NCBI GenBank assembly: GCA_016931855.1
Contig: JAFGDZ010000026.1
Location: 31,472-95,471, forward strand
Direction of reading: 5' to 3'
Source of the DNA: Bacteroidales bacterium
Lineage (GTDB): Bacteria > Bacteroidota > Bacteroidia > Bacteroidales > Tenuifilaceae
DNA: 64,000 nt
Position numbers and translations under genes: made by a program
Part shown: positions 1 to 53,656 of the stretch, piece after piece
How the letters are laid out: every line of letters begins with the position of its first letter
Position numbering within the stretch: the stretch's first letter is position 1
Notes under the pieces: model-generated
Told to the model about the DNA's origin: nothing
What the model saw: only the letters and a program-made list of their open reading frames with translations
Database searches by the model: none

Positions 1-529
1 AATAGCGCACCGCGTTGCCCGACAGCCCATTTATTGAAAGGTTAAAGTTGGAACCCTCGCCCCCGTCCTGCCTAATGCGTATGCCACTGGCCCTATCAAC
101 AAGGGCATTCAAACTATTCAACGTAGCAGCAATGGGCTGAACATTGAGACTGGATGCAGCATACACCTTCTCACGAATCTGCTGAGCACTGGATTTACTA
201 TATACCTGAACCGCTTCAAGAGAAAGAGCATTCTCTTCAAGAGTGAAATCAAGCGTTTCTGAACGCCTAATCACAACCTCTTTCCGTATGGTATTGTAAC
301 CCACAACGGAAACAACCAGCACCTGTTTGCCCACAGCAGACTGAAAAGAATAAGAGCCACTACTATCGGTAAAGGCTCCTTGACTCGAATTCTCTATGGC
401 CACCATTGCCAGCGCAACAGGGTTTCCCTGCTCATCCCTAATCGTGCCCGAAATGGTAACCCGATCCTCAGAAGAGAATGATACAAAGCTCAATGAAATC
501 AGCAAAGAGAGTATAAAGGACAATCGCAT
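1..529 (-). CDS. TonB-dependent receptor, N-terminal part; the gene runs off the window start
   Basis: Reverse-complement translation from ATG (529-527) gives MRLSFILSLLISLSFVSF... with a signal peptide, a carboxypeptidase-regulatory-like segment and a plug-like segment (...GIRIRQDGGEGSNF...). Not in the ORF track because it has no stop in the window. Confidence 0.55.
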   Translation of the reverse strand, partial: MRLSFILSLLISLSFVSFSSEDRVTISGTIRDEQGNPVALAMVAIENSSQGAFTDSSGSYSFQSAVGKQVLVVSVVGYNTIRKEVVIRRSETLDFTLEENALSLEAVQVYSKSSAQQIREKVYAASSLNVQPIAATLNSLNALVDRASGIRIRQDGGEGSNFNLSINGLSGNAVRY

Positions 530-621
530 AATAAAATAAGGATAAGAAGTGAACTCAGGGTTAGGGCAACAGAAAGCCATTCATAGGCATCCCGTTAATC
601 TGAGCAGATGAATTGTACACG

Positions 622-1572
622 TTAGTAGGAGATTGTCTCACTCCTTACTTTTTCAGGAGCCTCATACTCCCGCTTCTTATCCATTATATCCAACCGACGA
701 TTCCGAGCGTTAAACTCTAGTATCTCAATAAAGCGATTCTGAATGACAGGAACCTGACCAAGCCCCTGCAAGGAAACCTCTACTAGAAAACCAGCCTCCT
801 CCAGCTGCGCTTTCCAATCAACGGCAACATCGTTTTTAGCATGCTCGCCTGCAACAAACATAAAGGGCATCAAAACCACCTGCTTTAGCCCTAGTTTCTG
901 CAACTGGGACAATGCCTGCTCATAAAAGGGATAACCCTCAATACAACCCACCACGTAATTCTTATGACCACGGGACTTAAGCATGTGATCGAGCATAGCA
1001 TACTGCGCCGTTGAAACATCGTAGGTACCATGCCCCACCCACAGGTAGGCGGTTTGATCATCGCCATTCCGCGTAAGCGCATCAATAACCTTAACGTAAT
1101 CATTGGCATAGAAAAGGAGCGGTGTACCCACCCGAACCTCCTTGAACTGATGGCGCAGCTCGGCAACGTTACGGTTAAGCGACTCCATCTCAACCCCATC
1201 AATAATAGTGGTAGGTTGTACTAGAATGTGCGTGTAACCATCGGCCTTTAGATGCGAGAGCGCAGCAAGTGGGTTCAACTTTGAGATACCGCGCTGAGCC
1301 AAGCGCTTTATAATAATGCGAGAGGTGTAGGCTTCGCGTACTTCTACGCCCGGAAAGTGCCCCTGAGCCTTAAGGTTAATAGCATCGATGGTTTGGGCTC
1401 GGGTATCGTCGTGCGTTGTACCAAAGTGCACCATCAGAATGGCAACCCGATCCCCTTTTTGTAGATTTTTAAAGATATCAGAAGGTTCAAACACCTCCCC
1501 CTTGGCCATAGCCAAAGAGGCAAGGCATAACAAATAGCATACACTAATGGCTGCCAACAATCTTGTCCACAT
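622..1572 (-). CDS. cbiK: sirohydrochlorin cobaltochelatase CbiK family, periplasmic, with signal peptide
   Basis: CbiK motifs are present: VHFGTTHDD, WVGHGTYD, FVAGEHAKND. Start re-called at internal Met (MWTRLLAAISVCYLL... signal peptide) because the 1573-1725 part of the tracked ORF overlaps a cobalamin riboswitch. Confidence 0.75.
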   Translation of the reverse strand: MWTRLLAAISVCYLLCLASLAMAKGEVFEPSDIFKNLQKGDRVAILMVHFGTTHDDTRAQTIDAINLKAQGHFPGVEVREAYTSRIIIKRLAQRGISKLNPLAALSHLKADGYTHILVQPTTIIDGVEMESLNRNVAELRHQFKEVRVGTPLLFYANDYVKVIDALTRNGDDQTAYLWVGHGTYDVSTAQYAMLDHMLKSRGHKNYVVGCIEGYPFYEQALSQLQKLGLKQVVLMPFMFVAGEHAKNDVAVDWKAQLEEAGFLVEVSLQGLGQVPVIQNRFIEILEFNARNRRLDIMDKKREYEAPEKVRSETISY

Positions 1573-1639
1573 AACTCTAAGAAAAAAGGTTACAAAACAA
1601 TGTTCTTGCCCCCGAGAACACAATTTACCTGTATGACCA

Positions 1640-1800
1640 TGGCAGGTTTCCTGACTCGCTTCGCTCCTAGGAAAGCCTTCCCATCCCATAAAAGAGATAG
1701 TGGCAGAGGGATTACCTAAAAGCACTAAATGAAGCTTACAGTAGCGGGCACTGTTCCGGAATTAAACCGGATTCCCTTTTATGTAGCAAACGAACGTTTA
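1640..1800 (-). ncRNA. cobalamin (B12) riboswitch upstream of cbiK
   Basis: The minus-strand sequence reads ...AAAGGGAATCCGGTTTAATTCCGGAACAGTGCCCGCTACT...CCTCTGCCACTATC. The conserved GGGAA..CCGGT..CCGG..CAG.GCCCGC core and a GCCACT B12 box sit immediately 5' of the cbiK start. Confidence 0.7.
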
Positions 1801-2039
1801 GCCACATCACCATAGCACTGGCAAAACTATATATTTAAATGGAATAAGAAAAGGAGAAAGAGGAACATAAGGAAAAGAGATAACCCCCAGCAACCCATTC
1901 AAAACAAACGATCCACCTCAAAAGTAACCTTAGGGGACAAAGGAGTTCTATTCTCCCTTAAGGCTCAGTATTATAACTCGCAGGCTCAAGCAACCCAGAA
2001 TAAAACCACATTCAGCCTACGATAGAATCAAAGAAAGGA

Positions 2040-3131
2040 CTACTCACCTAGGTGTTCATTCCACGACTCGGCGGTAGATAGGTCTAAATGCCCCATCCAA
2101 ATTGCACGCAGGCTAGCATAATCAGCCAAACCAATCATGTGGCAGTTCTCCTCCTTAACGGTATAACCCAACTTGCGGAGTTTTAGCTTCCAGCTGTACT
2201 CTGCCTCATGATCAGGCTCATATGGATCTACATCGGCTAGGGTACGGTTATCGTCTAAGTCGCCGGCCATATCGTTGTGCGCATGGTCGCCAGCTACCGA
2301 CATCATTGGAGCAAGATGTAGCACTATGCCATTATCGGGTTGTTGCCCTAAGCCATTGACTGGATTGTTTGCCTGAGGGTTCCCCGTAGCCTCCGCAAGT
2401 TCCTTACGAATGTAAGAGAACATCATATCACCATAATCCACCGTGCCAACAAAAATGCGCTTACGACCGCCATCAAGATCTTGCAGGGCCTTCTGAACCT
2501 GAAGGTAACGGTTATTGGCATGAGAGTACTCCTTGTCGGGATTCCCATGCCCCATAAAAATGACAAACTCACCCTTGGCCACCTTATCCTTACAGAACTC
2601 ATTAAAAAGCACCTTGGCTACAGCATCCACATCGCTTTCACCACCAGATAGTTCATCCTCACTCAACAAACAAGCACCCTTTGCTACTCGTACATCAGCG
2701 AAAGGAATCATAAAGTTCTTTTTCACATCGGTATTCATTAGGCTCAAATACTCCTCTCCTGGTATTACATGAAGAGACTGAACGCCAACCGTTTTATACC
2801 CAGCCTTTCCTATTGCGCTTAGCCATAAATCGGGTTGAGCATAGTACTTACCTATACTCGCACCAACACGGGAAACGCAGGTACGAGAAGTAAAAGAGAG
2901 GTACACATCGGCATTGGGATACCTTTTCTGATAATCGCCAACTATGGCATTGTAACTCGACTGAGGAAGTTCATAGGTACTTCCAAAGGTACACAGCAGA
3001 ATGGCCGTATCATGCTTCTTATCAACTTGAACAGGACTCTGTTCATTATTGTCATCATCTTTCGAACACGAAGACAATCCAAAAACAGTAGCGGCTAAAG
3101 CCACTAGGCATAAAAGACTAATCTTTTTCAT
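2040..3131 (-). CDS. CbiK-family (IhtB-like) lipoprotein
   Basis: Lipobox signal MKKISLLCLVALAATVFGLSSC (start re-called to Met7). CbiK-family motifs FMGHGNPD and SVAGDHAHNDMAGD are present. The first-site His is replaced (LLCTFGSTYE). Confidence 0.65.
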   Translation of the reverse strand: MKKISLLCLVALAATVFGLSSCSKDDDNNEQSPVQVDKKHDTAILLCTFGSTYELPQSSYNAIVGDYQKRYPNADVYLSFTSRTCVSRVGASIGKYYAQPDLWLSAIGKAGYKTVGVQSLHVIPGEEYLSLMNTDVKKNFMIPFADVRVAKGACLLSEDELSGGESDVDAVAKVLFNEFCKDKVAKGEFVIFMGHGNPDKEYSHANNRYLQVQKALQDLDGGRKRIFVGTVDYGDMMFSYIRKELAEATGNPQANNPVNGLGQQPDNGIVLHLAPMMSVAGDHAHNDMAGDLDDNRTLADVDPYEPDHEAEYSWKLKLRKLGYTVKEENCHMIGLADYASLRAIWMGHLDLSTAESWNEHLGE

Positions 3132-3176
3132 CGGTTTACATTTTAACATTACTTATTAGGTTGCTATGATTTGTTG

Positions 3177-5291
3177 CTAATTCAAATCTGCATCGTCGGA
3201 CTCAACCTCGGTCATTCCTCTCATTCTAGGTGAACGGGTCGACTTCTTATCCTTAAACTGCAAGTTCAGCGAAACGTAGAGAGTTCTTCCGGGGGTCGAC
3301 GTCCCCCTGTTTCTGCCAAAAGGCGTTCTATCTACATAGTTGAAAATATTATCAACACCCATGCTCATGTCAACATTATACTGAAGGAATTTCAGAAAGG
3401 AATGAGATGTGTTAAGCCGCCAAATGGAGTAGGGGTTCGTGTTCCCATCGGTTATGTAAAAACGCTCCGACTGGTAGCGACCAAACAAGCTAACGGATAA
3501 ACGGTAAACTCCTGCAGAGAGTTCCTTATCCCAAGTCATACGAGCTGTAGCATTATGATACGACGTGCCATTTATGGGCTTGTACTCTTTAAAATAGCCC
3601 TGCTCTGGATCCTGAGCCTTTGCATCGGCAAAGCTATAACCTCCCCCCACCGAGAAACCGCCCTTGAGAGTAAGTGCAAACGTAAAATCGGCACCATAGC
3701 TACGCGCCCTTGCCAGATTGGTGTAACGCATGGTCTCCTCCACCTCCAGCAACTTATCCTCGGGTGAGGTAAGAACAGGCTGCAATGCAATCATGTTCTG
3801 CACCCCATTGTAGTATAGGGTAAGACTCAACTTTAGAACCGAGGAATGAAACTCCGTCCCAATCGAATAGTAGTTCGACAACTGAGGGCGGAGATTCTCA
3901 TTACCATAGTACGCTTTCATTCGGGTCATTATGGTAGCCAGGTAGCAATAGTAAAGTTCCTTCACTGTTGGAGCCTTGAACCCATGCGAATAGGTTGCCC
4001 TCAGATTAAATCGGCCCAAACGGTACACTGCCGACACCTTAGGTGTTGCAATATGCCCAAAGGCCTCGTGATGCACCAAGCGTATACCCGATGTAACATT
4101 GAGCCGCGGCAACACGCTCCACTCATCCTGCGCATAGGCCGATAAAGTGTATGCCGAAGCACGATCGCCCCCAACCAAGCGCATGGGAGAAACCAGTACG
4201 CCCATGCTATACTCCATCCCAGCGCTCACAACATGCTTCTGCCCTATACTGAAAACACCCTTTGCCCGGGTCATAAAACGCCGCTGTGAACTCTGCATAA
4301 CCCTATCGCCAGGGTAAAAAACGATCCGCTCACCATTTGCGTTGAATAAGTCGGTATACTCGCGCTGCGTATAATCGTAGTAATAAGCATACTCCCCAAA
4401 CGAAGCATCCACCAAGAGCCGATTCTCAGCAGAGAAGCGGTAAGTTGCATCCATAGAGTAGTTCTGATCCCGATAGTAAAAATCCTTCAACTGCCACTGA
4501 GGAAATCCCGAGGGACGGTATGTCCAACGATTGTAGTAAGAGGCATCAGCCCTAACCCGAATCCTTTTTGAGAGCGCATACTCAACAGACTGAGCAACCT
4601 TGTAATTCTGCGAACGATTCACGGTACGCGTCACACTGTTATCGTAAAGATTATGCCTGTACCACTCGTCAGAGGTATTCTGCCATCCATCGGTATGCTT
4701 ATAACTAACCGAGGTGCTGGCGCTTACCCTGTCAAAACTTAGCCCCAAGGAGCTACTCTGTAGCACATCGGCATGATAGCCCACCCGTGTGGTGTTTGAA
4801 AAGCTAACCCGATCGCGATTCTTTCGGGTGATGAAGTTCACAACCCCAGCAATGGCATCAGAGCCATAAAGCGAGGAGGAGGCGCCTTTCACTATCTCAA
4901 TCCGCTCAACGCTACCTATATCAATGGCATTCAAATCATTCTGCCCACCCACATCACCATTAATCCGCTTCCCATCAAGAAGAATTAGTATATAGCCGCC
5001 ACCTAAGCCATTAAGCTGCATCCCCGAACCCATATCGTTCTGACTAAAACTAAATGATGCGCTCAGGGAACCCAGGATCTCCTCAACGCTTCGCCCTGAG
5101 AGATTTCGCAGCGCCTTCCCTGAGATCACCTCCGTTTGCACAGGTGCATTCTTCAGGTAATGCGTTGTTCCTGTTCCAGTAACCACCACCTCAGGTAAAT
5201 CCACGTTCCCACGAAGGAGCACAGTATCGGGTTGAGCCCAAGAAAAACTTGCGCAAAGCAGAAGAGGTAAAAGAGAGATAAGTCGTCGCAT
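3177..5291 (-). CDS. TonB-dependent outer-membrane receptor (BtuB-like)
   Basis: Signal peptide; TonB box-like DTVLLRG and plug (VVVTGTG...EEILGSL...NGLGGG...IDGKRIN); a 700-aa beta-barrel rich in aromatic/Gly residues. Preceded by a B12 riboswitch. Confidence 0.85.
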   Translation of the reverse strand: MRRLISLLPLLLCASFSWAQPDTVLLRGNVDLPEVVVTGTGTTHYLKNAPVQTEVISGKALRNLSGRSVEEILGSLSASFSFSQNDMGSGMQLNGLGGGYILILLDGKRINGDVGGQNDLNAIDIGSVERIEIVKGASSSLYGSDAIAGVVNFITRKNRDRVSFSNTTRVGYHADVLQSSSLGLSFDRVSASTSVSYKHTDGWQNTSDEWYRHNLYDNSVTRTVNRSQNYKVAQSVEYALSKRIRVRADASYYNRWTYRPSGFPQWQLKDFYYRDQNYSMDATYRFSAENRLLVDASFGEYAYYYDYTQREYTDLFNANGERIVFYPGDRVMQSSQRRFMTRAKGVFSIGQKHVVSAGMEYSMGVLVSPMRLVGGDRASAYTLSAYAQDEWSVLPRLNVTSGIRLVHHEAFGHIATPKVSAVYRLGRFNLRATYSHGFKAPTVKELYYCYLATIMTRMKAYYGNENLRPQLSNYYSIGTEFHSSVLKLSLTLYYNGVQNMIALQPVLTSPEDKLLEVEETMRYTNLARARSYGADFTFALTLKGGFSVGGGYSFADAKAQDPEQGYFKEYKPINGTSYHNATARMTWDKELSAGVYRLSVSLFGRYQSERFYITDGNTNPYSIWRLNTSHSFLKFLQYNVDMSMGVDNIFNYVDRTPFGRNRGTSTPGRTLYVSLNLQFKDKKSTRSPRMRGMTEVESDDADLN

Positions 5292-5439
5292 ATTGGCTAA
5301 ATAGTTCCGCCATACGAGACCAAAGAAATAATCGGTTTTAACAAAAAGGAATAAGCTGTAAAACTAGATGCCAATACCATTTGGAGCGCCGATACATTTG
5401 CTTTTAGTCCTGAAAGCTGGATGTATTATTACTAAACCA

Positions 5440-5615
5440 TTTGGCAGGTCTTCTGGCTCTCCTCATGCTTAAGGGCCTTCCCATCGGCATTCAACCGAAA
5501 GTGGCCAAAGAATTCCTAAGCACTTTTTATGAGGATTACAGCTGCAGGTACAGCTCCGGATTCAAACCGGATTCCCTCTTAACGCAACAAGTGATACTCG
5601 TTTGCATTACCAAAA
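5440..5615 (-). ncRNA. cobalamin (B12) riboswitch upstream of the TBDR
   Basis: Minus strand reads ...GAGGGAATCCGGTTTGAATCCGGAGCTGTACCTGCAGC...TTGGCCACTTTCGG. Same conserved core and B12 box as the 1640-1800 element. Confidence 0.65.
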
Positions 5616-5737
5616 CGGGGGCAAAGCTACATGTTTTTATAAAAAACAAAAAGAAAAACGGAACTTTAACCAAACAACCCAACAAAAAAGACCCGAATTC
5701 CTCCTGTAATAGAAGGAATCCGGGTCTAATTATATTG

Positions 5738-5811
5738 AGCGGAAAACGGGACTCGAACCCGCGACCCTCAGCTTGGGAAGCTGATGCTCTACCAACTGAG
5801 CTACTTCCGCG
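5738..5811 (-). tRNA. tRNA-Gly (anticodon CCC)
   Basis: Reverse complement is GCGGAAGTAGCTCAGTTGGTAGAGCATCAGCTTCCCAAGCTGAGGGTCGCGGGTTCGAGTCCCGTTTTCCGCT. This folds as a cloverleaf with a TTCCCAA anticodon loop. Confidence 0.8.
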
Positions 5812-5845
5812 ATAAAAAAAAGGCCAACCCTTACGTTGGATTGAC

Positions 5846-5919
<74 letters not shown>

Positions 5920-6157
5920 CTATACCCCCAAAAAGCATGAAACTTTCTCAGAATTGAGAAGCCAAAAGTAGTAAAATTTTGATTTCTCCAACAATCCTTT
6001 CAAGAAAAAAAACTTTTTATCAAATCTTACGTAAGATATGATTGCGATAATGAGATATTTTTTGTTGTTTTGTGCTGCTCATTTTTTAACTCTTTTTAAA
6101 AGACATTTAGAGATTTTTACGTTGAATTTGTACCTTTAAGGCCCAAAATTTTACCAT

Positions 6158-6847
6158 ATGGAAATCAAAAAATCCCCAAAAGCTAATCTTGAGAAGAAGA
6201 AACTAATCTTCGCAGAAATTGGCCTAATTCTTTCTCTTCTGTTCGTATTTGCTGCCTTTGAATGGAAATCGTCTGGCGATGTTGACATTGACACAAACAT
6301 TGTTCAGGACGTAGCAATGGAAGAGGAAATGGTTCCTATTACTCACCAAGAGGAGATTAAAACCCCTCCTGCTCCACCTCAGCCAGTTGTTGTAGCCGAC
6401 ATTATCAACATTGTTGAGGATAATGTTGAGATTGATGACAACATGGACATCTTCGACACCGAGTTCAACGAGAATGCAGCAGTTCAGATTGTAGAGTTCT
6501 CCGATGCTGAAGAAGAGGTTGAAGAGGCTGAGATTTTCTTGGTTGTAGAAGACATGCCTGGCTTTGGCGATGGCGACTCTAACAAATTCCGCGATTACAT
6601 CAACAAGAACCTTCGTTACCCCGATGTTGCTGCAGAGAACGGCATTCAAGGGCGCGTATTCATTCAGTTTGTTGTTGAGGCCGATGGTCGCGTTACTAAT
6701 GTAAAGGTTTTACGTGGTGTTGACCCTGCTCTTGACAAAGAAGCTGTTCGCGTGGTAGAATCGTCACCAAAATGGAAGCCTGGTAAGCAAAGGGGTAAGC
6801 CTGTACGTGTATCGTTCACCTTCCCTATTATCTTTGTTCTACAGTAA
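6158..6847 (+). CDS. tonB: energy transducer TonB family protein
   Basis: N-terminal TM anchor, Pro-rich spacer (PPAPPQPVVV) and C-terminal TonB domain (GIQGRVFIQFVVEADGRVTNVKVLRGV...). Confidence 0.8.
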   Translation: MEIKKSPKANLEKKKLIFAEIGLILSLLFVFAAFEWKSSGDVDIDTNIVQDVAMEEEMVPITHQEEIKTPPAPPQPVVVADIINIVEDNVEIDDNMDIFDTEFNENAAVQIVEFSDAEEEVEEAEIFLVVEDMPGFGDGDSNKFRDYINKNLRYPDVAAENGIQGRVFIQFVVEADGRVTNVKVLRGVDPALDKEAVRVVESSPKWKPGKQRGKPVRVSFTFPIIFVLQ

Positions 6848-6872
6848 GTCCAGCTCTTTACAATAATATAAA

Positions 6873-6899
6873 ACCCTGATTTCGATCAGGGTTTTTTTT
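6873..6899 (+). terminator. intrinsic terminator after tonB
   Basis: Hairpin CCCTGAT-TTCG-ATCAGGG followed by TTTTTTTT. Confidence 0.6.
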
Positions 6900-6918
6900 C
6901 GTATCTAAGAATCAAACT

Positions 6919-8112
6919 ATGGCACAAGAAATATCAACAGTAAAGGTTCAGGAAACAGCAGTACTTGTTGGGGTAATACTCCCCCAACAATTGGAAGCTG
7001 ATGTTTACGAATACATGGACGAACTAGAATTCCTTGCCGATACAGCAGGAGCTAAAGTTGTGCGTAGGTTTATTCAGAAAATGACCGGACTAAACTCCAA
7101 AACATTTATTGGAAGCGGTAAGGTTTTGGAGATAAAAGCTTACGTTGATGAGAACGAGATTGATACAATTATTTTTGACGATGAGCTCTCTGCCACTCAG
7201 CTAAGAAACCTAGAACGCGAATTTGAGAAAAAGGTACTCGACAGAACTAACCTAATCCTCGACATTTTTGCACAACGAGCCCAAACAGCTTACGCAAAAA
7301 CGCAGGTAGAGCTGGCGCAATATCAATATCTACTCCCAAGGCTAACCAGAATGTGGACCCACCTTGAACGCCAACGAGGCGGTATTGGGTTACGTGGCCC
7401 GGGGGAAACGGAGATTGAGACCGACCGCCGTATTATCCGCGACAGAATTACCAAGCTAAAAGAGGAGCTGCGCAAAATTGATAAGCAAATGGCTACCCAA
7501 CGCAAGAATAGGGCCAGCATGATTCGGGTTGCACTTGTTGGGTACACCAACGTGGGCAAATCAACCCTGATGAACCTTATTAGCAAGTCGGAGGTTTTTG
7601 CCGAGAATAAGCTGTTTGCAACGCTGGACACCACCGTGCGCAAGGTTGTAATAGACAATTTGCCCTTCCTGCTATCGGACACCGTAGGTTTTATCCGCAA
7701 ATTGCCTCACCAGCTGGTTGAGTCGTTCAAATCTACCCTCGACGAGGTTCGTGAGGCGGATCTACTGCTTCACATAGTGGACATTTCGCACGCTTCGTTC
7801 GAGGATCAAATACAGGTTGTTAAGGAAACGCTACACGAGATTGGTGCTTCGGATAAACCAACCTTCCTCGTTTTTAACAAGATTGATGCCTACAAATGGG
7901 AGGAGAAGGACGAGGACGACTTATCAGAGAAAACGGAGAAGAACTTTAGCCTTCAGGATTTAGAAAACAGCTGGATGGCAAAGACTAATCACCCATGCAT
8001 CTTTATCTCTGCAAAGGAAAGAACTAACCTAGAGGAGTTTAAAAACAAGGTTTACGATAAGGTTAAGGAGATTCACATTACCCGATATCCATACGATAAC
8101 TTTTTATACTAG
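6919..8112 (+). CDS. hflX: GTPase HflX
   Basis: HflX N-domain followed by a G-domain (GYTNVGKSTLMN, DTVGF, NKID). Confidence 0.9.
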   Translation: MAQEISTVKVQETAVLVGVILPQQLEADVYEYMDELEFLADTAGAKVVRRFIQKMTGLNSKTFIGSGKVLEIKAYVDENEIDTIIFDDELSATQLRNLEREFEKKVLDRTNLILDIFAQRAQTAYAKTQVELAQYQYLLPRLTRMWTHLERQRGGIGLRGPGETEIETDRRIIRDRITKLKEELRKIDKQMATQRKNRASMIRVALVGYTNVGKSTLMNLISKSEVFAENKLFATLDTTVRKVVIDNLPFLLSDTVGFIRKLPHQLVESFKSTLDEVREADLLLHIVDISHASFEDQIQVVKETLHEIGASDKPTFLVFNKIDAYKWEEKDEDDLSEKTEKNFSLQDLENSWMAKTNHPCIFISAKERTNLEEFKNKVYDKVKEIHITRYPYDNFLY

Positions 8113-9288: not shown

Positions 9289-12200
9289 ATGAGAATAATT
9301 TCTGCAACAATCCTTTTACTGATATCGCTACAGTGCTTTGCACAAACCACATACAACTTTGAGCTGGGCAGCATTGCCGAGTGGAGCCAGTTCCCTGCCG
9401 ACAGATGGGACGCATCAACAGATCAACCCATAAGTGGGACCTACTCCCTAAGGCAAATCTTTGATAATGGTGTAGCAAGCGTTGATGCCATTTCAACGCC
9501 ACTTGCAACAGGAAACCTTGCTACAGGAAGGGCTACTTGGCGGTTCAAGCTTAGGCATGGATACGATCCCTCTGGGTCTAACCGCTGGTGGTTCCTACTT
9601 ATGGCCAATGGCGATGCCTCCACCATTACAACAGGAACAGCAATGGGTACAGCTTCGGGCTACGCTGTGGGTGTAAACGTTGTGGGATCAACCGATTTGG
9701 TTGCGCTATACAAAATTGAGGCAGGTACTCCCACTGCAATTGTAACATCAACAGTTAACTGGCAAACCCAAATAGGGAAAGCTACCCCAGGAGCCATTGA
9801 GGTTACCCGAACCGAAACGGGCAGCTTCACGCTAAAAATATCTACCACTGGTGATTTTGGTTCCCTAGTAAACGAAGGAACAGCCTACGACAACACCTTT
9901 ACGCAAGCAACACACATGGGACTGGCTTACCAGTACACAGCCAGCGCCGATAGACAAATATGGCTCGACGATGTGGAGTACACATACCAACCACTAAATG
10001 CTAACGATGCCACAACAACTGTGGAGCTACCTGTTACGCAAGTTACAGCGGGAAGAGTTTCTTCAACAGCTACGCAGCAAAGCATGGCTGTAGAGGTGCT
10101 TAGGTTTACCATTAGCGATAATGGTACAACCGATGGGCTACCAACAAGAGCCAAGCAGGTTGAGTTTATACCAGGGGCTAACAACAGGGTAGATTGGGCT
10201 ACATCGCTTGGCGGAGCAGCACTAAAGAATAGCACAGGGACAGTAGTTTCTACCCATGCAACCATTGAGAGCAATGCCCTAACCATTGCTGTTGACTCAC
10301 TACTCGCCGAAGTTTCCGATGGCACATCGCAAGAGTTCTCCCTTTGGGTATATTTGGCACCCAAGGCCTTTACCGATGGCGACTCACTTGCTTTTACCAT
10401 TGATAAGCAGAATAGTGCTTGGCTTGCTGGCATTAGCGGGTCAAACTTTACCCAGGAGTTTGCCCAGCAGATTGCCTCCCCTATTTTTACGGTTGATGTT
10501 GCGGCAACAAGGCTATGGTATGCGCTTTACCCGCAATCTGTTATTGTAAACCAACCATTCAGCATCAGCATAAACGCCACAGACGAGTACGGGTCGGCTG
10601 ACGCCGATTTTAACCAACCCGTTACCCTGGCACTAGCATCAGGGGATGGAGTACTAAGCTCATCAACAGGGCTCACCAAAAGCGCAGTGGCAGGCACCGC
10701 TCATTGGAACGATATCAAAATAAACACAACAGGGATACTCTCTATAAACGCATCCAGTAGCGGACTAACTCCCGCTATTGGTGAAAGCGTGGCAGCAAAC
10801 AACGACACCACAACAGTAATCCTAATTCCAAGCAACCAGCCAACCACCTCAGCCATTCCCTCTACCACCAACTTTATTGGACAAGCAGTTGAGGTGTTCC
10901 GCTTTAGGGTATTCGACCAAGGAACAGGCGATGGAAAACCAACAATAATACGACAGATTAAGCTGTACCGAGGCGAAGGAGAGAACCTTATTTCCCTATC
11001 AAAAGTTATTGCGGGATTACTAGTTAAGGTTGATGGTTCTATTGCATCGCTGTCCCAACCCGATATAAAAACCGATTACCTAACCATTGCAGCAAGCCCT
11101 TCTGGCTGGGTTGTTCCCGATGGTGGCGTTACAGAGTTCTCCATTCTGGTTTACCTTAAAACAAGCGGCATAACCGATAATCAGAACCTAAGCCTTACTA
11201 TAAAAAACAGCAACCATGGATTTGTGACCGACACACAGGGATCAAGCATTGTAACCACTCTACCCCAAAGCATTTCGTCGGCAGCATTCCCCATAACCGT
11301 TACTGGCACAACACTTAAGTTCACCAAACAACCCACCTGGGTTGGTGTAAACACCCCGTTCACAGTAGAGGTTTCGGCAACAGATAGCAATGGGAATATT
11401 GATACCGATTATTCAGGCACCATTAAACTAGGCATAGCATCGGGTAACGGAGAGCTTGTGGCGGCAAATGGAGAAGAAATTATAGCAACAAATGGCACAG
11501 CTAAGTTCGAGCCGTTAAGCTACAATACCGCGGAGGCATTTACGCTAAAAGCAACCGCAACCAATTTACTAGGAACGCTATCGGGTAGCATTACCTGTGG
11601 CGATAAGGATGGTATGGCAAGTGCACCAGGCAGCCAGATAGATTCCCAAACCGTATCGTCCACATCCAACAGCACCAGCAGCACATTCCCATTAATATCA
11701 TTCAACATCAGCGATGGAGGAACAACAGATGGGCTACCCATCAACATCCAAAAACTTGAGTTTAGAAATTTCCTTTACCCCAACGGGGAAGCACTAAACC
11801 AACTAATTGCAGGTGCTTTTATTGTAGTTGATGGAGAAGAGGTTATGCCATTAGAGGTAAGCATTACCGCCGATAAGCTAACGCTAACCTTTGCCGATGG
11901 GGTAGCAACCATACCCAATGGATACGCCTACGGCATAACGCTATTTGCTTACCTAAAAAACAGCCCAATTCCCGACGGGTCAAGGTTACAACTATACATT
12001 GCCAACCAGAGCCACGGATGGACAACCTACCCATCGGGTTCATCGTTTGCCGATGAGTTTAGCGCTGCCATTTACGGACTACCTGCTACTATTGATGTAG
12101 AGGCAACCGAGCTGCGTTTTCTAAACGTACCCCTTTCGGTTGAAGCAAACCAGCCATTCAGCATCTTTGCTGTTTGTACCGATAGTAATGGAAACCTTGA

Positions 12201-14967
12201 CAAAGCCTTCTCGGGCACTGCCGAAGTAATTATGGCACAAGGCACTGGCGAACTACTGGTTGAGAGCAACGAGGTAACCATTAGTAACGGATTGGCAGAA
12301 TGGGCCGATGCCTCATTCTCTCAAAACGGAACCTACAAAATTGCCGCAAGAGCCGAAGGAGTGACCAGCACCACATCAAACCAAATATTCTGCGGATTCA
12401 GCAACAGCTGCCCAACAAGTGAGCCATTTGAGTCGAACTCCATTAGCACCTACCCTGGAGCAAACGGATGGTTTATTTCAGACTTATCGCCCATATCGGG
12501 TAGCAAATCGCTACAGCATAAGCCAACCACATTAGGAGGTACCAGCTACCTTTCCATGCCTATGGAACCAATAGTAACTGGCGATGCCACTATGGAGTGG
12601 AATGTTACGCTCCGCAATGGCGCATGGGATCCTTCATCGGAGAACACCTTCTGGTACGTACTTGGAGCCAATGGCTCAGACCTTACATCGGCAACGCTAA
12701 ATGGCTATGCGGTAGGTGTTAGAGTGCTATCGGATGGCGACTGGCTATCGGTTTGGAAAATTACACAGGGGAAAGCCGCAGAGGTGATAGTACAATCGGA
12801 GTTTGACTGGAACGAGAGCCAAACGGTTGATATATCAGTAAAAACATCGCCACTTGGCGACTGGTACCTTGGTTACACCCTTTGGGGAAAGGGCGGATAT
12901 TCAAGCACCACAGCCCCCGTTAGGTTTGCCGCTACCGATACGCTACGCTACATGGGCCCTGTTTTCTCTTACTCACAGTCGCGCTCAGGTCAGCTTTGGG
13001 TGGACAATATCAACTTCTGCAAAACCTACTTCCCGCCACAGTTAACAAAGGCAACGCCACTAAGTATGACCTCGGTTAGGGTTAGCCTATCGGCAATTCC
13101 ATCAACAATAAACGGCAGCACGTTTGCCATAAAAACAGCAAGTGGGCAAAGCATTGCGGTTAAAGATGCAACGCTAACAGCTGGCAAACCCGAGGTTTTG
13201 CTATCGACAGATGTGCTTACACAGGAAAACCTAACGCTAACCGCATGCGGACTAACTAACAGCAATGGCGATGCAGTTTGCAGCAGCATAACCTTCCGCA
13301 TTGGCGGCGAGGGCTCTTTTAACCGCGTTGTAATCAACGAGGTTATGAGCGACCCCACACCCGTTGTGGGATTACCAGAGGCAGAGTACATTGAGGTTTA
13401 CAACCCATCGGAAACAGACTCAATAAGCATAACAGGATGGACGCTAACCGTGGGCAACGCCACCGCTAAACTGCCCGACTCATACATTAAGAGTAGGCAG
13501 CACGCCATACTATGCGCTACATCACAGGTGAGTACATTCAGCACTTATGGCAAATCCATAGGCGTAAGCAGCTTTCCATCGTTACCAAACAGCGGGGCAC
13601 TTGTTCAGCTTCGCGACCAAAACGGGATGCTAGTTTCCTATGTCGATTACCTTGCATCGTGGCACAGCGACTCAACCAAGCGGGATGGCGGCTACTCCCT
13701 TGAGCGCATTAACCCGCTTAGCCCCGATGGTGGCGTAGGCAACTGGGCATCGTCAAAGGCAGCAATAGGGGGAACTCCAGGTAGAGAGAACTCCGCAAAG
13801 GGAACCTACACCGATAATGTAGCACCACTTATTAGCTGGCACCGATTACCTAATGAGCAAACCATTCTAGTTGCATTTAATGAAGCCATGGATAGCCTAT
13901 CGGTTTGGAATCCCAACAGCTACTCGTTCCAGAATAATGAGCTGAGCATTGCTGCGGTAAACGTTACAGGGGCGCTATCCAATCAGGTGGAGCTATTGCT
14001 TGATGCTGCACTAGAGGTTGGTAAAAGCTACACTCTTTGCATATCGGAAAGTGTAACCGACCTATCGGGTAACGCCTATAGCAACGGCTGCATTACCATT
14101 GTTAGGCCACATCAACCCGAACTAAGTGATATTATTATCAACGAAGTACTTTTTAACCCATACACAGGCGGAACCGATTTTGTGGAACTGTACAATCGTT
14201 CGGAGAAAATATTGGATTTATCCATGCTATCGTTAGCCAATAGGGATTTGGTTAGCCTTGGCATAAAGGAGGTTTATTCCATCACCACAAACAGCAAGCT
14301 GCTATACCCAGGCGAGTACGCAGTGCTATCGGCTAATAGCAGCGCTGTAACAGCATTCTACAATGCGCAAACCCCATCGGCACTTGTTGCAATGGATAAA
14401 ATACCAGCATTTGCAAGCGATATGGGATATGTGGTTCTCCTAACCTATTACGGCGATTTAATTGACGAGATGTACTACACAGAGAAGATGCACCATCCAC
14501 TTCTGGTAAGTCCCAAGGGCGTTTCGTTGGAACGGGTAAACCCAGAAATAAGCTCAAACGATAGCGGAGCATGGCAATCGGCTTCGCAAGCAGTGGGGTT
14601 TGCCACACCAACCTACGCCAACTCCCAGCAGGTTAATTTGGTTACCCCAACCGATGAGTTCACGCTATCGCCCGAAACCTTCTCGCCCAATGGCGATGGA
14701 ATAGACGATATGCTAACCATAGGCTACTCTCTACCCGAGGCAGGACACGTAGCCAATATCAGAATTTTCACATCGGAAGGGAAAGAGGTAAAGCGGCTAG
14801 CATCGAATCTGTTACTTGGAACGGAGGGACAAATATTCTGGAATGGCCTTAACGAGCAGAACCAAAAAGTAAAACCAGGCATCTACCTGGTTTACATTGA
14901 GCGTTTCGACCTAAAAGGTAACTCAACGCAGTATAAAAAGGTTTGTGTTGTAGCCCAGCGTTTATAA
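9289..14967 (+). CDS. large secreted protein with two lamin-tail domains and a T9SS type-B (CHU_C/SprB-type) C-terminal sorting domain
   Basis: Signal peptide. Two LTD motifs (VVINEVMSDP...EYIEVYNPS...GWTL at about 13330-13480; IIINEVLFNP...DFVELYNRS at about 14130-14260). C-terminus FSPNGDGIDDML...IRIFTSEGKEV...WNGLNE...GIYLVYIE matches the gliding-motility C-terminal domain. An N-terminal ~220-aa domain is duplicated internally (GYAVGVNVVGSTD / GYAVGVRVLSDGD). Confidence 0.8.
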   Translation: MRIISATILLLISLQCFAQTTYNFELGSIAEWSQFPADRWDASTDQPISGTYSLRQIFDNGVASVDAISTPLATGNLATGRATWRFKLRHGYDPSGSNRWWFLLMANGDASTITTGTAMGTASGYAVGVNVVGSTDLVALYKIEAGTPTAIVTSTVNWQTQIGKATPGAIEVTRTETGSFTLKISTTGDFGSLVNEGTAYDNTFTQATHMGLAYQYTASADRQIWLDDVEYTYQPLNANDATTTVELPVTQVTAGRVSSTATQQSMAVEVLRFTISDNGTTDGLPTRAKQVEFIPGANNRVDWATSLGGAALKNSTGTVVSTHATIESNALTIAVDSLLAEVSDGTSQEFSLWVYLAPKAFTDGDSLAFTIDKQNSAWLAGISGSNFTQEFAQQIASPIFTVDVAATRLWYALYPQSVIVNQPFSISINATDEYGSADADFNQPVTLALASGDGVLSSSTGLTKSAVAGTAHWNDIKINTTGILSINASSSGLTPAIGESVAANNDTTTVILIPSNQPTTSAIPSTTNFIGQAVEVFRFRVFDQGTGDGKPTIIRQIKLYRGEGENLISLSKVIAGLLVKVDGSIASLSQPDIKTDYLTIAASPSGWVVPDGGVTEFSILVYLKTSGITDNQNLSLTIKNSNHGFVTDTQGSSIVTTLPQSISSAAFPITVTGTTLKFTKQPTWVGVNTPFTVEVSATDSNGNIDTDYSGTIKLGIASGNGELVAANGEEIIATNGTAKFEPLSYNTAEAFTLKATATNLLGTLSGSITCGDKDGMASAPGSQIDSQTVSSTSNSTSSTFPLISFNISDGGTTDGLPINIQKLEFRNFLYPNGEALNQLIAGAFIVVDGEEVMPLEVSITADKLTLTFADGVATIPNGYAYGITLFAYLKNSPIPDGSRLQLYIANQSHGWTTYPSGSSFADEFSAAIYGLPATIDVEATELRFLNVPLSVEANQPFSIFAVCTDSNGNLDKAFSGTAEVIMAQGTGELLVESNEVTISNGLAEWADASFSQNGTYKIAARAEGVTSTTSNQIFCGFSNSCPTSEPFESNSISTYPGANGWFISDLSPISGSKSLQHKPTTLGGTSYLSMPMEPIVTGDATMEWNVTLRNGAWDPSSENTFWYVLGANGSDLTSATLNGYAVGVRVLSDGDWLSVWKITQGKAAEVIVQSEFDWNESQTVDISVKTSPLGDWYLGYTLWGKGGYSSTTAPVRFAATDTLRYMGPVFSYSQSRSGQLWVDNINFCKTYFPPQLTKATPLSMTSVRVSLSAIPSTINGSTFAIKTASGQSIAVKDATLTAGKPEVLLSTDVLTQENLTLTACGLTNSNGDAVCSSITFRIGGEGSFNRVVINEVMSDPTPVVGLPEAEYIEVYNPSETDSISITGWTLTVGNATAKLPDSYIKSRQHAILCATSQVSTFSTYGKSIGVSSFPSLPNSGALVQLRDQNGMLVSYVDYLASWHSDSTKRDGGYSLERINPLSPDGGVGNWASSKAAIGGTPGRENSAKGTYTDNVAPLISWHRLPNEQTILVAFNEAMDSLSVWNPNSYSFQNNELSIAAVNVTGALSNQVELLLDAALEVGKSYTLCISESVTDLSGNAYSNGCITIVRPHQPELSDIIINEVLFNPYTGGTDFVELYNRSEKILDLSMLSLANRDLVSLGIKEVYSITTNSKLLYPGEYAVLSANSSAVTAFYNAQTPSALVAMDKIPAFASDMGYVVLLTYYGDLIDEMYYTEKMHHPLLVSPKGVSLERVNPEISSNDSGAWQSASQAVGFATPTYANSQQVNLVTPTDEFTLSPETFSPNGDGIDDMLTIGYSLPEAGHVANIRIFTSEGKEVKRLASNLLLGTEGQIFWNGLNEQNQKVKPGIYLVYIERFDLKGNSTQYKKVCVVAQRL

Positions 14968-21414: not shown

Positions 21415-21437
21415 TTTGATTTTTCTCTAAATGATTG

Positions 21438-21509
21438 TAGCCCGTAGGGGAATCGAACCCCTGTTACCAGGATGAAAACCTGACGTCCTAACCCCTAGAC
21501 GAACGGGCC
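21438..21509 (-). tRNA. tRNA-Glu (anticodon TTC), copy 1
   Basis: Reverse complement GGCCCGTTCGTCTAGGGGTTAGGACGTCAGGTTTTCATCCTGGTAACAGGGGTTCGATTCCCCTACGGGCTA. Confidence 0.8.
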
Positions 21510-21943: not shown

Positions 21944-21966
21944 CTCAATTATCTTCTAAATGATTG

Positions 21967-22038
21967 TAGCCCGTAGGGGAATCGAACCCCTGTTACCAGG
22001 ATGAAAACCTGACGTCCTAACCCCTAGACGAACGGGCC
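21967..22038 (-). tRNA. tRNA-Glu (anticodon TTC), copy 2 (identical to copy 1)
   Basis: Identical 72-nt sequence to 21438-21509. Confidence 0.8.
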
Positions 22039-26073: not shown

Positions 26074-29000
26074 CTAACGTTTTAAGAACACATTACCAGT
26101 ATATGACTTGGACTTTTCGCCCTTAACCTCTATGATATAGTAATAGGTACCCGTTGGAAGCGTTTTCCCCACAGATAGAGCTATATTTGAACGACCATCC
26201 CAATCGTTGGTATAATCGTCGCTTGAGTAAACAATGTTACCCCAACGATTGTAGATTTTAACCGAAGCCCTTCCGAAGAACTTAAGCCCCTTAATTTCGA
26301 AGTAATCGTTTATGCCATCGCCATCGGGAGAGAACCCTTCGGGGATAAAGAGCGCATCGGGAACCGGCTCCTCAACAGTAATTCGGACCACAGCCTGAGC
26401 ACAATTAGACTCGCCCATGCAAATGGAGTAGGTTAGAGAATCGGAACCAACAAAGTCGATATAAGGCGTGTAGGTTAATACTCCATCGCTACTCATTGTG
26501 GCATAGCCATTTTTTACATCGTTATGGATATAAATTGTACATGATGATTTTTCGATGCCAGTATCATTCATTAGTACATTGACATCAACAGTGGTATTCA
26601 TCATCATGTTAACGGCATCGTCCACAGCCACAATAGTTGGTAGGTTCTCAACAACGTTAACAATTACCCTTGCAATGGAATAGTCGCCATCAAAATCGGT
26701 TATGCGATAGAAGAACACCACACTACCCATATATCCAGACACTGGAGTAAATAGGATGGTGTTATCGTCATTTACTACAATGGCACCTTCGGTATTACTT
26801 GGTGCTGTTTCTACAGTAAGGAATACGGGAGCATCGTTTAATCCTGTATCGTTGGTTAAAGCAACAATATTGATAGGAGTATCAACAAATGTTTCTACCT
26901 CATCATCATTGGCGTCAGGTAGATAGTTAACATCCTTTTTAACGTTAACCACAACAGAAGCCTCATCGGAGTCACCATTAGCATCAACTACCATATAGTT
27001 AAATGTAGCAGCACCAACATAGTCGCCGGATGGAGTAAATACAATCGTATTATCCTCATTTACCGAAACAGTACCCTGTGCCACATGTGGAGCCTGAGAT
27101 ATGCTAACCAATACGGGTTGATCTTCCAAACCATAATCATTCTCCAGCACGGCAATAGTAACTGCAGCACTCTTACTGGTTCCTCGCCTATCATTATTAG
27201 CAACGGGTAGGTGGTTCACCTCGCCCTCAGCCAGCACGGTGATGGTTACCGTGGCGGTGGCGTAGTCGCCCTGCGCATCGGTTACGGTGTAGCCAAAGGT
27301 GGTTACACCAGAGAAGCCAGCAGCTGGGGTGAAGGTTACCGTGTTATCGGCGTTAACCGCTACTGTTCCGCTGGTTGCGTTTGTTGATATGGTTACTACA
27401 ACAGGAACATCCTCTAGGCCTGAATCGTTGGCCAGTACGTCAACCGTTACAGCGGTTTGGTACTCCGTGCCACGGCTATCGGCGTTGGCAACGGGGAGAT
27501 GGTTAACCTCGCCCTCGGCCAGCACGGTGATGGTTACCGTGGCGGTGGCGTGGTCGCCCTGTGCATCGGTTACGGTGTAGCCAAAGGTGGATACGCCTGA
27601 AAAGCCTGCGTCTGGGGTAAAGGTTACCGTGTTATCGGCGTTAACCGCTGCTGTTCCGCTGGTTGGGTTTGTTGATATGGTTACTACCACAGGTGCATCC
27701 TCTAAACCAGCATCATTGGCTAGTACATCAACGGTTACGGCGGCTTGGTACTCCGTGCCACGGCTATCGGCATTGGCAATTGGTAAATGGTTCACCTCGC
27801 CCTCGGCCAGCACGGTGATGGTTACCGTGGCGGTGGCATGGTCGCCCTGCGCATCGGTTACGGTGTAGCCGAAGGTGGCTACGCCCGAGAAGCCAGCTGC
27901 TGGGGTAAAGACTACTGTGTTATCGGCGTTAACCGCTGCTGTTCCGTTGGTTGCGTTTGTGGATATGATTACTACCACAGGTGCATCCTCCAAACCAGTA
28001 TCATTCGCCAAAACATCAACGGTGACTGGTGTTTGGTACTCCGTACCACGGCTGTCGGCGTTGGCAACGGGTAGGTGGTTCACCTCGCCCTCGGCCAGTA
28101 CAGTGATGGTTACCGTGGCGGTGGCATGGTCGCCCTGCGCATCGGTTACGGTGTAGCCAAAGGTGGATACGCCCGAGAAGCCAGCGGCTGGGGTAAAGGT
28201 TACCGTGTTATCGGCGTTAACCGCAGCTGTTCCGCTGGTTGGATTTGTGGATATGGTTACTACCACAGGAGAATCCTCTAAACCAGTATCATTCGCTAAA
28301 ACATCAACGGTTACACCAGTTTGGTAATCCGTCCCGCGGCTATCTGCGTTGGCAATAGGTAGGTGGTTCACCTCGCCCTCGGCCAGCACGGTGATGGTTA
28401 CCGTGGCGGTGGCGTGGTCGCCCTGCGCATCGGTTACGGTGTAGCCAAAGGTGGCTACACCAGAAAAGCCTGCGGCTGAGGTGAAGGTTACCGTGTTATC
28501 GGCATTAACCGCGGTTGTTCCATTAGCTGATGCGGTGGATATGGTTACTACCACAGGAGCGTCTTCCAAACCAGTATCATTAGCTAAAACATCAACGGTT
28601 ACTGCGGTTTGGTACTCCGTGCCACGGCTATCTGCGTTGGCAACAGGTAGGTGGTTCACCTCGCCCTCAGCCAGCACGGTGATGGTTACCGTGGCGGTGG
28701 CATGGTCGCCCTGCGCATCGGTTACGGTGTAGCCAAAGGTGGCCACGCCCGAGAAGCCTGCGGCTGGGGTGAAGGTTACCGTGTTATCGGCGTTAACCGC
28801 AGCAGTTCCGCTGGTTGGGTTTGTTAATATGGTTACTACCACAGGAGCGTCCTCTAAACCAGTATCATTCGCCAAAACGTCAACGGTCACTGGAGTTTGG
28901 TACTCGGTACCGCGGCTATCGGCGTTGGCTACAGGTAAATGGTTCACCTCGCCCTCGGCCAGCACGGTGATGGTTACCGTGGCTTCTGACACATCTCCAT

Positions 29001-40593: not shown

Positions 40594-41116
40594 ATAGTTA
40601 TTGTAAAGAATACGCATAAACACGAATACCACCAGCATTTAAAACACTGGTGGTATTCTTTTATTAAACCAAAATTAAAGACAAGTGAAAAACACAAATT
40701 GCAAAAACCATTACCAACAAGTTCTCTTTACATTATAGAGATAATAAATCCAAAAGGCAATTTGCGAGACTGAACCGCTGCAGAAAGCATCCAACACTAC
40801 TTTTAAAATTTGCAACATCCAAGTTTCCAAACCAATATTACGAAAAAAAGCAACACCAATGATTAGGATTACCAAAAATATTGACGAATATCACCTTTTG
40901 AGCGAAACCCTCGTCTGCTTAATAATTAGAACCAACCAGCAATAAGCATGTGCCAGCACATGCCTAAGCATTAAAAGTCTTTAACACAAAACAAAAGCAA
41001 ATAGGGCAAAGGGTAACGCTTTATAACTATATTTGCTAGAAGTGCAACAGAGTTAACGCCCTAAACACAAAGCATCAGTTAAGTATTAAATATCTAACCT
41101 TTAACCTAGATTAGCC

Positions 41117-53640: not shown

Positions 53641-53656
53641 TCTATCAATACAAGCA

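Follow-up and report, generated by a model that had tools for sequence, protein, structure and literature searches.

Two cobalamin-riboswitch units with exported CbiK-family proteins and TonB-dependent receptors in Bacteroidales, a possible extracytoplasmic front end of cobamide synthesis

The ihtABCDE genes of Porphyromonas gingivalis include those for a receptor, IhtA, and for IhtB, an outer-membrane CbiK-like chelatase (PMC3764172, PMC12094164). A B12 riboswitch 5' of ihtA has already been published (PMC3764172), and iht transcription is unresponsive to iron or heme starvation (PMC12094164). Under the name FetB, the chelatase was reported in 2026 to metallate a porphyrin analogue with Co(II) and Mn(II), but to show neither chelatase activity with Fe(II) or Ni(II) nor dechelatase activity on hemin; the report is silent on cobalamin and on the riboswitch (PMC13065792). 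In Desulfovibrio, one B12 element lies 5' of cbiK-cbiL and btuCDF (PMC545781), and in Bacteroides thetaiotaomicron the XusABC proteins import ferric xenosiderophores, where XusC, the PepSY protein, is believed to free the metal by reduction (PMC13142918). Here, two adjacent gene units of a Bacteroidales bacterium, A and B, are compared with these systems. Both are encoded on the minus strand of a 64,000-nucleotide stretch of DNA (contig JAFGDZ010000026.1, positions 31,472 to 95,471; the window), and each comprises a cobalamin riboswitch, a gene for a TonB-dependent receptor (TBDR-A and TBDR-B) and a gene of the CbiK family, whose products are designated A2 in unit A and B1 in unit B.

The original prediction, which was made from the DNA letters alone, had described two such units side by side, and calling of open reading frames (ORFs) returned its coordinates for all four genes exactly (Table 1). 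The two elements that it had taken for cobalamin riboswitches, at 1640-1800 and 5440-5615, fall inside matches to the Rfam covariance model RF00174 that score far above the gathering score of 31.5 bits. Both aptamers span model positions 1-189 of 189 and contain the B12 box GCCACU. By homology, both units are thus placed under predicted B12-riboswitch control, presumably by riboswitches of the adenosylcobalamin type that turn each unit off when B12 is plentiful. TAnnTTTG, which we take to be the -7 promoter element of Bacteroidetes, opens both aptamers and stands at the start of homologous riboswitches as well. Because each aptamer starts with this motif, units A and B seem to have promoters of their own. 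A possible attenuator, whose fold is no better than that of shuffled sequence, can be drawn between aptamer B and cbiK; its predicted stem GUGUUCU...AGAACAU is followed by the U-rich tail UUGUUUUGUAACCUUUUUU.

Unit A has the architecture of ihtAB: a B12 riboswitch is followed by a receptor and by an outer-membrane lipoprotein with the CbiK fold. The likeness to IhtB noticed in the original prediction therefore goes beyond analogy, and unit A joins the outer-membrane modules of the published IhtAB type. A2 matches the Pfam family PF06180 with 133 bits (cutoff 26.2). Its N-terminus, MKKISLLCLVALAATVFGLSS followed by CSKDDD, contains the lipobox LSSC and then the acidic surface-export motif SKDDD, and a lipobox cysteine near position 22 together with an acidic run is found in 109 of the 120 best A2 homologs, from which A2 is predicted to be a surface-exposed lipoprotein. 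The closest relative of known structure is FetB/IhtB of P. gingivalis (9B86, E=2e-33, 33% identity), the second-best the periplasmic CbiK of Desulfovibrio vulgaris; an AlphaFold model of A2 with a predicted local distance difference test score of 88.6 was superposed by Foldseek on 9B86 with a TM score of 0.86. Both catalytic histidines are kept. H195, D232 and H283 are invariant in the A2 family, D232 taking the place of Glu175 of Salmonella CbiK. In contrast to FetB, A2 is about 70 residues longer, with two insertions specific to its family and, at the C-terminus, a conserved extension containing invariant residues, and it has Asp at the Glu175 equivalent. Nor is there an ABC (ATP-binding cassette) transporter directly 3' of A2, where ihtCDE would be expected; riboswitch B and cbiK come next instead.

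Relatives of TBDR-A from the same receptor family (30-56% identity) are encoded directly 5' of a CbiK-family gene at about 45 further loci. Among the NCBIfam models TBDR-A fits best a heme/hemoglobin receptor subfamily, with 147 bits at a cutoff of 317. It is far from the BtuB models TIGR01779 (110 bits, cutoff 600) and NF007926 (90 bits, cutoff 836), and in the PDB comparison its similarity to Escherichia coli BtuB is confined to the plug domain (E ~3e-13), with no full-length BtuB match. The designation of TBDR-A as BtuB is therefore unsupported. Unit A nevertheless shares with the BtuB-BtuG(-BtuH) systems of Bacteroides the combination of a riboswitch-controlled transporter and a surface lipoprotein with an acidic signal (PMC6143338, PMC10404256), in which BtuG is a beta-propeller, whereas A2 has the fold of a class II chelatase.

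B1, the product of the first gene of unit B, is most similar to a biosynthetic chelatase. It matches PF06180 with 244 bits, and its best PDB match is the cytoplasmic sirohydrochlorin cobaltochelatase CbiK of Salmonella enterica (1QGO, E=1e-37, 36% identity), on which the B1 model is superposed with a TM score of 0.90 and a root-mean-square deviation of 1.8 A. The periplasmic CbiKP of D. vulgaris (2XVX), which like B1 carries a signal peptide, is more distant (E=2e-26, TM score 0.89). Residues H181, E212 and H244, corresponding to His145, Glu175 and His207 of the Salmonella enzyme, are invariant in 26 diverse family members, in which the mean column identity is 68%. B1 is distinguished from Salmonella CbiK by about 40 additional residues at the N-terminus, among them a Sec signal peptide. 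The N-terminus, MWTRLLAAISVCYLLCLASLAMA followed by KGE, has a basic residue, a hydrophobic core of 19 residues and a cleavage site between LAMA and KG. Such a classical signal peptide precedes the CbiK domain in 104 of the 120 best B1 homologs, mostly cut between A and HGG, and in 86 of the 89 B1-type CbiKs of the genome set described below. B1 is therefore predicted to be exported via Sec. Export signals of A2 and B1 were read manually and by regular expressions, without a dedicated predictor, and cross-checked by their conservation among homologs; export of both paralogs, as the original prediction had it, is borne out in this way. In most B1-family proteins the mature N-terminus is rich in histidine (HGGxNYEHSDFF) and could form an additional metal-binding motif; the copy in the window (1441-1503) has KGEVFEPSDIF at this place, with no histidine. 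Against the equivalog model of the sirohydrochlorin cobaltochelatase, NF047852 of NCBIfam, B1 scores 189.8 bits and A2 79.1 bits. Since the cutoff is 400 bits, neither is to be named the canonical cytoplasmic enzyme.

Unit B is cut by the window edge after the first 176 codons of its receptor. The remainder was read from an identical contig (L091) of 21 kb from another Bacteroidales metagenome-assembled genome (GCA_016937275.1). There, riboswitch B heads an operon of 13 genes, with cbiK, including its signal peptide, followed by genes for TBDR-B, a DUF4374 lipoprotein and a PepSY_TM protein, and then by cbiH-cbiC, cbiE-cbiT, cbiG-cbiF, cbiL, Peripla_BP_2, FecCD, an ABC ATPase and cbiJ-cbiD; the genes beyond are unrelated and lie on the opposite strand. 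The operon covers every enzyme from cobalt-sirohydrochlorin to cobyrinate, i.e., CbiL, H, F, G, D, J, E, T and C. CbiH, CbiE, CbiT, CbiF and CbiD score above their NCBIfam cutoffs and CbiL reaches 160.2 bits at a cutoff of 163.25. The alternative that the methylase of 245 amino acids is CobA was rejected, as the CbiL model gives 160 bits and the uroporphyrinogen methyltransferase models at most 36 bits. CobA, SirC, Hem and CbiMNQO genes and a second chelatase are absent from the operon, whose only chelatase is the exported B1. The set of Peripla_BP_2, FecCD and ATPase genes, about 11 kb beyond A2, encodes by sequence similarity a BtuFCD-like importer with a BtuC-like permease. Rfam detected only the two riboswitches on the 21-kb contig, and a hidden third riboswitch or separate regulation of the cbi genes was rejected on that ground.

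The three genes behind cbiK resemble those of XusABC of B. thetaiotaomicron (9GBC, 9HQE), in which a receptor, a DUF4374 surface lipoprotein and a PepSY_TM protein likewise form a triad. On L091 the XusA-like receptor, DUF4374 and PepSY_TM genes are consecutive (2065-7192, Pfam). Full-length TBDR-B (785 amino acids) aligns with XusA (9GBC) over its entire length (E=4e-103). The DUF4374 protein is distant from XusB; its similarity to XusB of Bacteroides fragilis is weak (E=2.5e-7), and it has a precomputed Pfam match to XusB. TBDR-B and its two partners in unit B are thus, as judged from homology, a metal-chelate import triad of the siderophore type. XusABC is iron-regulated and stands alone, whereas the triad of unit B lies in a cbi operon behind an exported chelatase and the cobalamin riboswitch is the only regulator visible there. 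Compared with D. vulgaris, the unit B operon adds the TonB-dependent receptor, the DUF4374 and PepSY_TM proteins and the whole ring pathway. No description was found of this variant, in which an exported CbiK and a Xus-like triad head a corrin-ring operon and which is widespread in Bacteroidales. A literature search, outside of which most subscription journals lay, revealed no paper that links the exported CbiKs of Bacteroidales cbi operons to precursor salvage, and where IhtB or exported CbiK was searched for together with B12 synthesis or riboswitches, the papers obtained were all centred on heme.

The distribution of these genes was studied in a survey with one genome per GTDB species, in which 212 species have a B1-type CbiK. 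ORFs were called in all loci, clustered and annotated with Pfam; the denominators below refer to 86-90 loci and 89 B1-type CbiKs. Nearly all of the best 80 loci bear the label of Bacteroidales (Dysgonomonas, Parabacteroides, Bacteroides, Phocaeicola, Prevotella, Porphyromonas, Butyricimonas and others); a few have other labels, which stem from metagenome bins. With a covariance model of our own, built from eight riboswitches, 75 more riboswitches were found in the loci. About 67 of 86 B1-type CbiKs are located behind a same-strand riboswitch in the operon leader, of which 64 were counted and three had been missed as the ORF caller over-extended a gene into the aptamer. Independent support came from Rfam, which revealed the order riboswitch, receptor, CbiK in six of six other loci scanned. 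A2-type genes follow a riboswitch and an IhtA-like receptor in all nine informative loci. The cbiHC gene shares the locus with a B1-type CbiK in 54 of 88 cases, and a receptor (56/86) or PepSY_TM (40/86) is encoded in the same direction as B1. The pairing of CbiK paralogs with TonB-dependent receptors inferred for the window is therefore conserved across Bacteroidales loci. Family profile searches of 90 loci gave no other CbiK- or CbiX-like ORF, in contrast to the two chelatases of D. vulgaris, and in the loci whose CbiK is exported BLAST identified no homolog of CbiM or SirC.

Three receptor families occur in these loci. The IhtA-like family, which includes TBDR-A, is always encoded directly 5' of a CbiK-family gene. 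In the XusA-like family, which includes TBDR-B, the DUF4374 gene comes next in all loci except L029, where units A and B are combined in one operon behind a single riboswitch. In most relatives of unit B this position is occupied by a different receptor family, without DUF4374. Receptors of the third family usually adjoin PepSY_TM. The most frequent layout consists of a divergent cbiA, the riboswitch, an IhtA-like receptor, the exported CbiK, a second receptor, PepSY_TM and cbi genes. Two different importers around one exported chelatase fit the two substrates that a chelatase has.

The three B1-type CbiKs without a signal peptide (L039, L044 and L089) are all from Porphyromonas, and their loci contain neither receptor nor PepSY_TM nor riboswitch. 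In L089 the CbiK gene is accompanied by genes for CbiM, CbiN and a CbiQ-CbiO-NAD_binding_7 fusion, a set that is the canonical route of cytoplasmic cobalt import and precorrin-2 oxidation. The fusion is a single ORF of 704 amino acids in a Porphyromonas metagenome-assembled genome (L089:3943-6057) that unites CbiQ, CbiO and a SirC-like precorrin-2 dehydrogenase. L044 is P. canoris, for which a complete heme pathway has been reported, while most Bacteroidota examined were without HemA, L, B and C (PMC13096392). Such a contrast, though drawn from a small sample, is expected if exported chelatase and receptors replace the cytoplasmic supply of cobalt-sirohydrochlorin.

A second kind of context was observed in Bacteroides intestinalis, B. 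cellulosilyticus and B. oleiciplenus (L080, L086, L087 and L090). There, operons led by a B12 riboswitch encode, in this order, an XusA-like receptor, DUF4374, an exported CbiK, a CobN-like protein (BtuS/HmuS), three small ORFs and an IhtA-like receptor. Since these loci have no cbi genes within 10 kb, exported CbiKs also belong to hmu-like contexts. The hmuYRSTUV/BtuS operons of Bacteroidetes resemble the units studied here in that chelatase-family proteins are exported and encoded beside TonB-dependent receptors, and some BtuS operons of Bacteroides are controlled by a B12 riboswitch and contain a B1-type CbiK and a DUF4374 protein (PMC6460266). They differ in the CobN-like gene, which the window does not have, and in the class of the chelatase, which is class II (CbiK) here rather than class I.

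The following model is proposed as the best reading of what the sequences show, namely riboswitches, export signals, a chelatase active site that is intact, and a conserved set and order of genes. Both units would form an extracytoplasmic front end of cobamide synthesis that is repressed by B12 and provides the corrin pathway with cobalt and perhaps also with the ring; we regard this as neither more nor less probable than its opposite. The outer-membrane systems would import a cobalt chelate, which the PepSY_TM protein would reduce and release, and probably also a ring of the sirohydrochlorin type. The exported CbiK paralogs would then insert cobalt in the periplasm or at the surface, and the ABC importer would hand the cobalt-tetrapyrrole over to the cytoplasmic enzymes that convert it to cobyrinate. 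B1 may perform the cobalt insertion of the pathway because it is the only chelatase of the operon and most similar to the biosynthetic enzyme of Salmonella. The original prediction had suggested that the CbiK paralogs act in corrinoid or tetrapyrrole capture or remodelling, as IhtB does for heme, rather than in cytoplasmic cobalt insertion. A role outside the cytoplasm is reasonable, given true riboswitches, exported paralogs and conserved pairing with receptors. The comparison with heme follows a model that the activities of FetB have made outdated, and cobalt insertion, though not in the cytoplasm, may well be what B1 does.

A more far-reaching version concerns the origin of the ring. According to this scenario, heme-auxotrophic Bacteroidales have moved cobalt insertion out of the cytoplasm and scavenge a sirohydrochlorin-type ring of their neighbours, which the exported CbiKs metallate. 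The ring would enter through the IhtA-like receptor, cobalt through the Xus-like or PepSY_TM system, and cobalt-sirohydrochlorin would reach the cobyrinate pathway through the BtuFCD-like transporter. We advance this version tentatively and consider it possible but doubtful. In P. gingivalis, genes for the steps that lead from precorrin-2 to B12 are present and genes for precorrin-2 synthesis are missing, as far as the work of Roper 2000 is relayed in PMC6461909, and salvage of tetrapyrrole precursors has been demonstrated for 5-aminolevulinate only (PMC6461909).

Several observations weigh against an extracytoplasmic front end of cobamide synthesis. Exported B1-type CbiKs are encoded, too, where no cbi gene lies within 10 kb, for example in some Parabacteroides, and likewise in the CobN/BtuS operons of Bacteroides described above. 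D. vulgaris reportedly has a periplasmic CbiK in addition to a cytoplasmic biosynthetic one, so that export alone need not mean a biosynthetic role. The link between loss of the signal peptide and de novo synthesis comes from three loci. The absence of ring and chelatase genes applies to the loci; hemA-D, cobA, sirC and CbiX/CysG may be encoded elsewhere in the genomes. Neither expression platform, A or B, folds better than shuffled sequence, and the substrates in the model are hypothetical, as is an extracellular supply of a sirohydrochlorin-type ring. In B. fragilis, finally, BtuS proteins are needed for the use of heme iron (PMC6460266).

A rival explanation is acquisition of cobalt alone, which we find rather unlikely. 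The Xus-like triad and the IhtA-like receptor would then import chelator-bound cobalt, PepSY_TM would reduce Co(III) and free Co(II), the ABC importer would take up Co(II) in the manner of CbtJKL, and the exported CbiK paralogs would serve only as cobalt-binding chaperones at the surface and in the periplasm, while the ring would be made de novo and receive its cobalt from a cytoplasmic chelatase encoded elsewhere. The homology of TBDR-B, DUF4374 and PepSY_TM with XusABC agrees with such a function, as does the histidine-rich mature N-terminus of many B1-family proteins, and where CbiK has no signal peptide CbiMNQO stands in place of the receptor modules. It is usual for cbi operons to contain cobalt transporters under B12-riboswitch control, a specificity for cobalt has been predicted for riboswitch-controlled TonB receptors, and CbtJKL imports cobalt and resembles BtuFCD; a 2021 review knew of no confirmed TonB-dependent receptor for cobalt (PMC7689651). 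Arguing against cobalt alone, however, is the absence of a cytoplasmic chelatase from all 90 loci, and B1 keeps the full catalytic triad, the CbiK fold and a degree of conservation that seem more than a carrier needs. FetB, moreover, does catalyze metal insertion (PMC13065792), and the lack of HemA, L, B and C in most Bacteroidota (PMC13096392) is at odds with a ring made de novo. A salvage of corrinoids, in which BtuB-like receptors import cobamides, cobinamide or cobyrinate-type intermediates and CbiK-fold proteins bind the corrinoid as BtuG and BtuH do, appears unlikely to us. Pairs of a riboswitch-controlled receptor and a surface lipoprotein are the standard layout of corrinoid uptake in Bacteroides (PMC6143338, PMC10404256), IhtA has been called a BtuB homolog (PMC3764172), the unit B operon has a BtuC-like permease, the CbiK fold binds a cobalt-tetrapyrrole product, and exported CbiKs are present in species and loci without cbi genes. 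Yet the BtuB similarity of TBDR-A is limited to the plug and far below the NCBIfam cutoffs, TBDR-B is clearly XusA-like, and salvage leaves unexplained why B1 is tightly linked, in 54 of 88 loci, with genes for early steps of the corrin ring and why the catalytic residues have been kept.

Uptake of heme iron in the manner classically ascribed to IhtAB, in which a surface CbiK-like protein strips iron from heme, the receptor imports it and the riboswitch is incidental or cross-regulatory, is very unlikely for units A and B. IhtB binds hemin and has been modelled as a reverse ferrochelatase (Dashper 2000, to the extent cited in PMC12094164), TBDR-A is nearest to the heme/hemoglobin receptor subfamily, albeit below its cutoff, and the related B12-regulated BtuS operons matter for the use of heme iron in B. 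fragilis. The missing Fe(II) chelatase and hemin dechelatase activities of FetB (PMC13065792) speak against this function, as do the indifference of iht transcription to iron and heme starvation (PMC12094164), the control by a B12 riboswitch and the location of the genes inside a cbi operon. In B. fragilis cbiK adjoins the CobN-like btuS1, and its disruption left the use of heme iron unaffected (unpublished data in PMC6460266). The possibility that B1 is an ordinary cytoplasmic CbiK, translated for instance from a GTG at the Val of GEVFEPS so that the signal peptide would be an untranslated leader, was rejected as highly improbable. An in-frame GTG does lie 26 codons 3' of the ATG and is preceded by a purine-rich stretch, yet Bacteroidetes are generally independent of Shine-Dalgarno sequences. 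Furthermore, the basic n-region, the hydrophobic N-terminus and the A-x-A or A/HGG cleavage site are conserved as coding sequence in many genera, in the proportions of homologs given above for B1.

B12 is required by most Bacteroidota, although these are rated as producing none of it or as having part of the pathway. If the units are the entry point for cobalt and a scavenged ring, B12 production would be conditional in dozens of Bacteroidales from the gut and the environment and would hinge on a shared precursor so far unrecognised, a new class of cross-fed B12 precursor, and models of cobamide cross-feeding would change. This would also explain a puzzle of 25 years, the precorrin-2-to-B12 pathway without precorrin-2 synthesis in P. 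gingivalis and its relatives, and the Iht system of P. gingivalis, long regarded as serving heme-iron uptake, would be reread as part of the B12 supply. Should the units import cobalt instead, TonB-dependent uptake of cobalt would for the first time be well supported. The architecture as such will not surprise a specialist in B12 genomics; the comparative pattern makes the old question of where Bacteroidales with a partial pathway obtain ring and cobalt directly accessible to experiments.

Table 1. Positions of the elements of units A and B and of the features upstream of unit A in the window
Feature	Position	Strand	Evidence and remarks
TBDR-B N-terminus, XusA-like TonB-dependent receptor, 176 aa	1-529	-	CarboxypepD_reg and start of plug; cut by window edge
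B1, exported CbiK cobaltochelatase homolog, 316 aa	622-1572	-	PF06180, E=1.6e-72; first operon gene
Possible expression-platform hairpin (attenuator)	1581-1621	-	between aptamer B and cbiK; weak call
Cobalamin riboswitch B aptamer	1624-1829	-	RF00174, 91.9 bits, E=1.7e-21
Candidate -7 promoter element of unit B, TAGTTTTG	1822-1829	-	read by eye from sequence
A2, CbiK-fold lipoprotein, FetB/IhtB homolog, 363 aa	2040-3131	-	PF06180, E=1.6e-38
TBDR-A, IhtA-like TonB-dependent receptor, 704 aa	3177-5291	-	Plug and TonB_dep_Rec_b-barrel
Cobalamin riboswitch A aptamer	5426-5629	-	RF00174, 83.1 bits, E=5.6e-19
Candidate -7 promoter element of unit A, TAGCTTTG	5622-5629	-	read by eye from sequence
Intrinsic-terminator-like hairpin	5689-5727	-	17-bp stem, then T tract; strong; after tRNA-Gly
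tRNA-Gly	5737-5810		Rfam; upstream of unit A
tRNA-Ala	5855-5929		Rfam; upstream of unit A

The terminator-like hairpin behind tRNA-Gly is the upstream boundary of unit A. On the opposite strand, about 530 nucleotides from the unit A promoter, a protein of 229 amino acids with a TonB_C domain is encoded (6158-6847, +), which could energise the neighbouring receptors. Outside the window, a second cobalamin riboswitch was detected in one of the loci of the survey (L010:11373-11559, 100.8 bits) directly 5' of genes for ThrE/ThrE_2 membrane proteins (11709-13060), which suggests a B12-regulated transporter.

Farther along the window, two proteins look like giant secreted adhesins: one of 4854 amino acids with Big_9 and cadherin-like repeats and a CHU_C type IX secretion signal (26074-40638, -), and one of 1892 amino acids with LTD, Big_5 and CHU_C domains (9289-14967, +). 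Two tRNA-Glu(ttc) genes with equal Rfam scores (21437-21509 and 21966-22038, -) are situated about 450 nucleotides apart. A cluster of PAS/GAF sensor proteins (51250-58463, +) that includes a GAF-PAS-SpoIIE protein with a PP2C phosphatase domain resembles a partner-switching regulatory module. A fusion protein of 1029 amino acids (59517-62606, +) combines a TerB domain at its N-terminus with an ABC ATPase and a membrane domain of the ABC-2 type.

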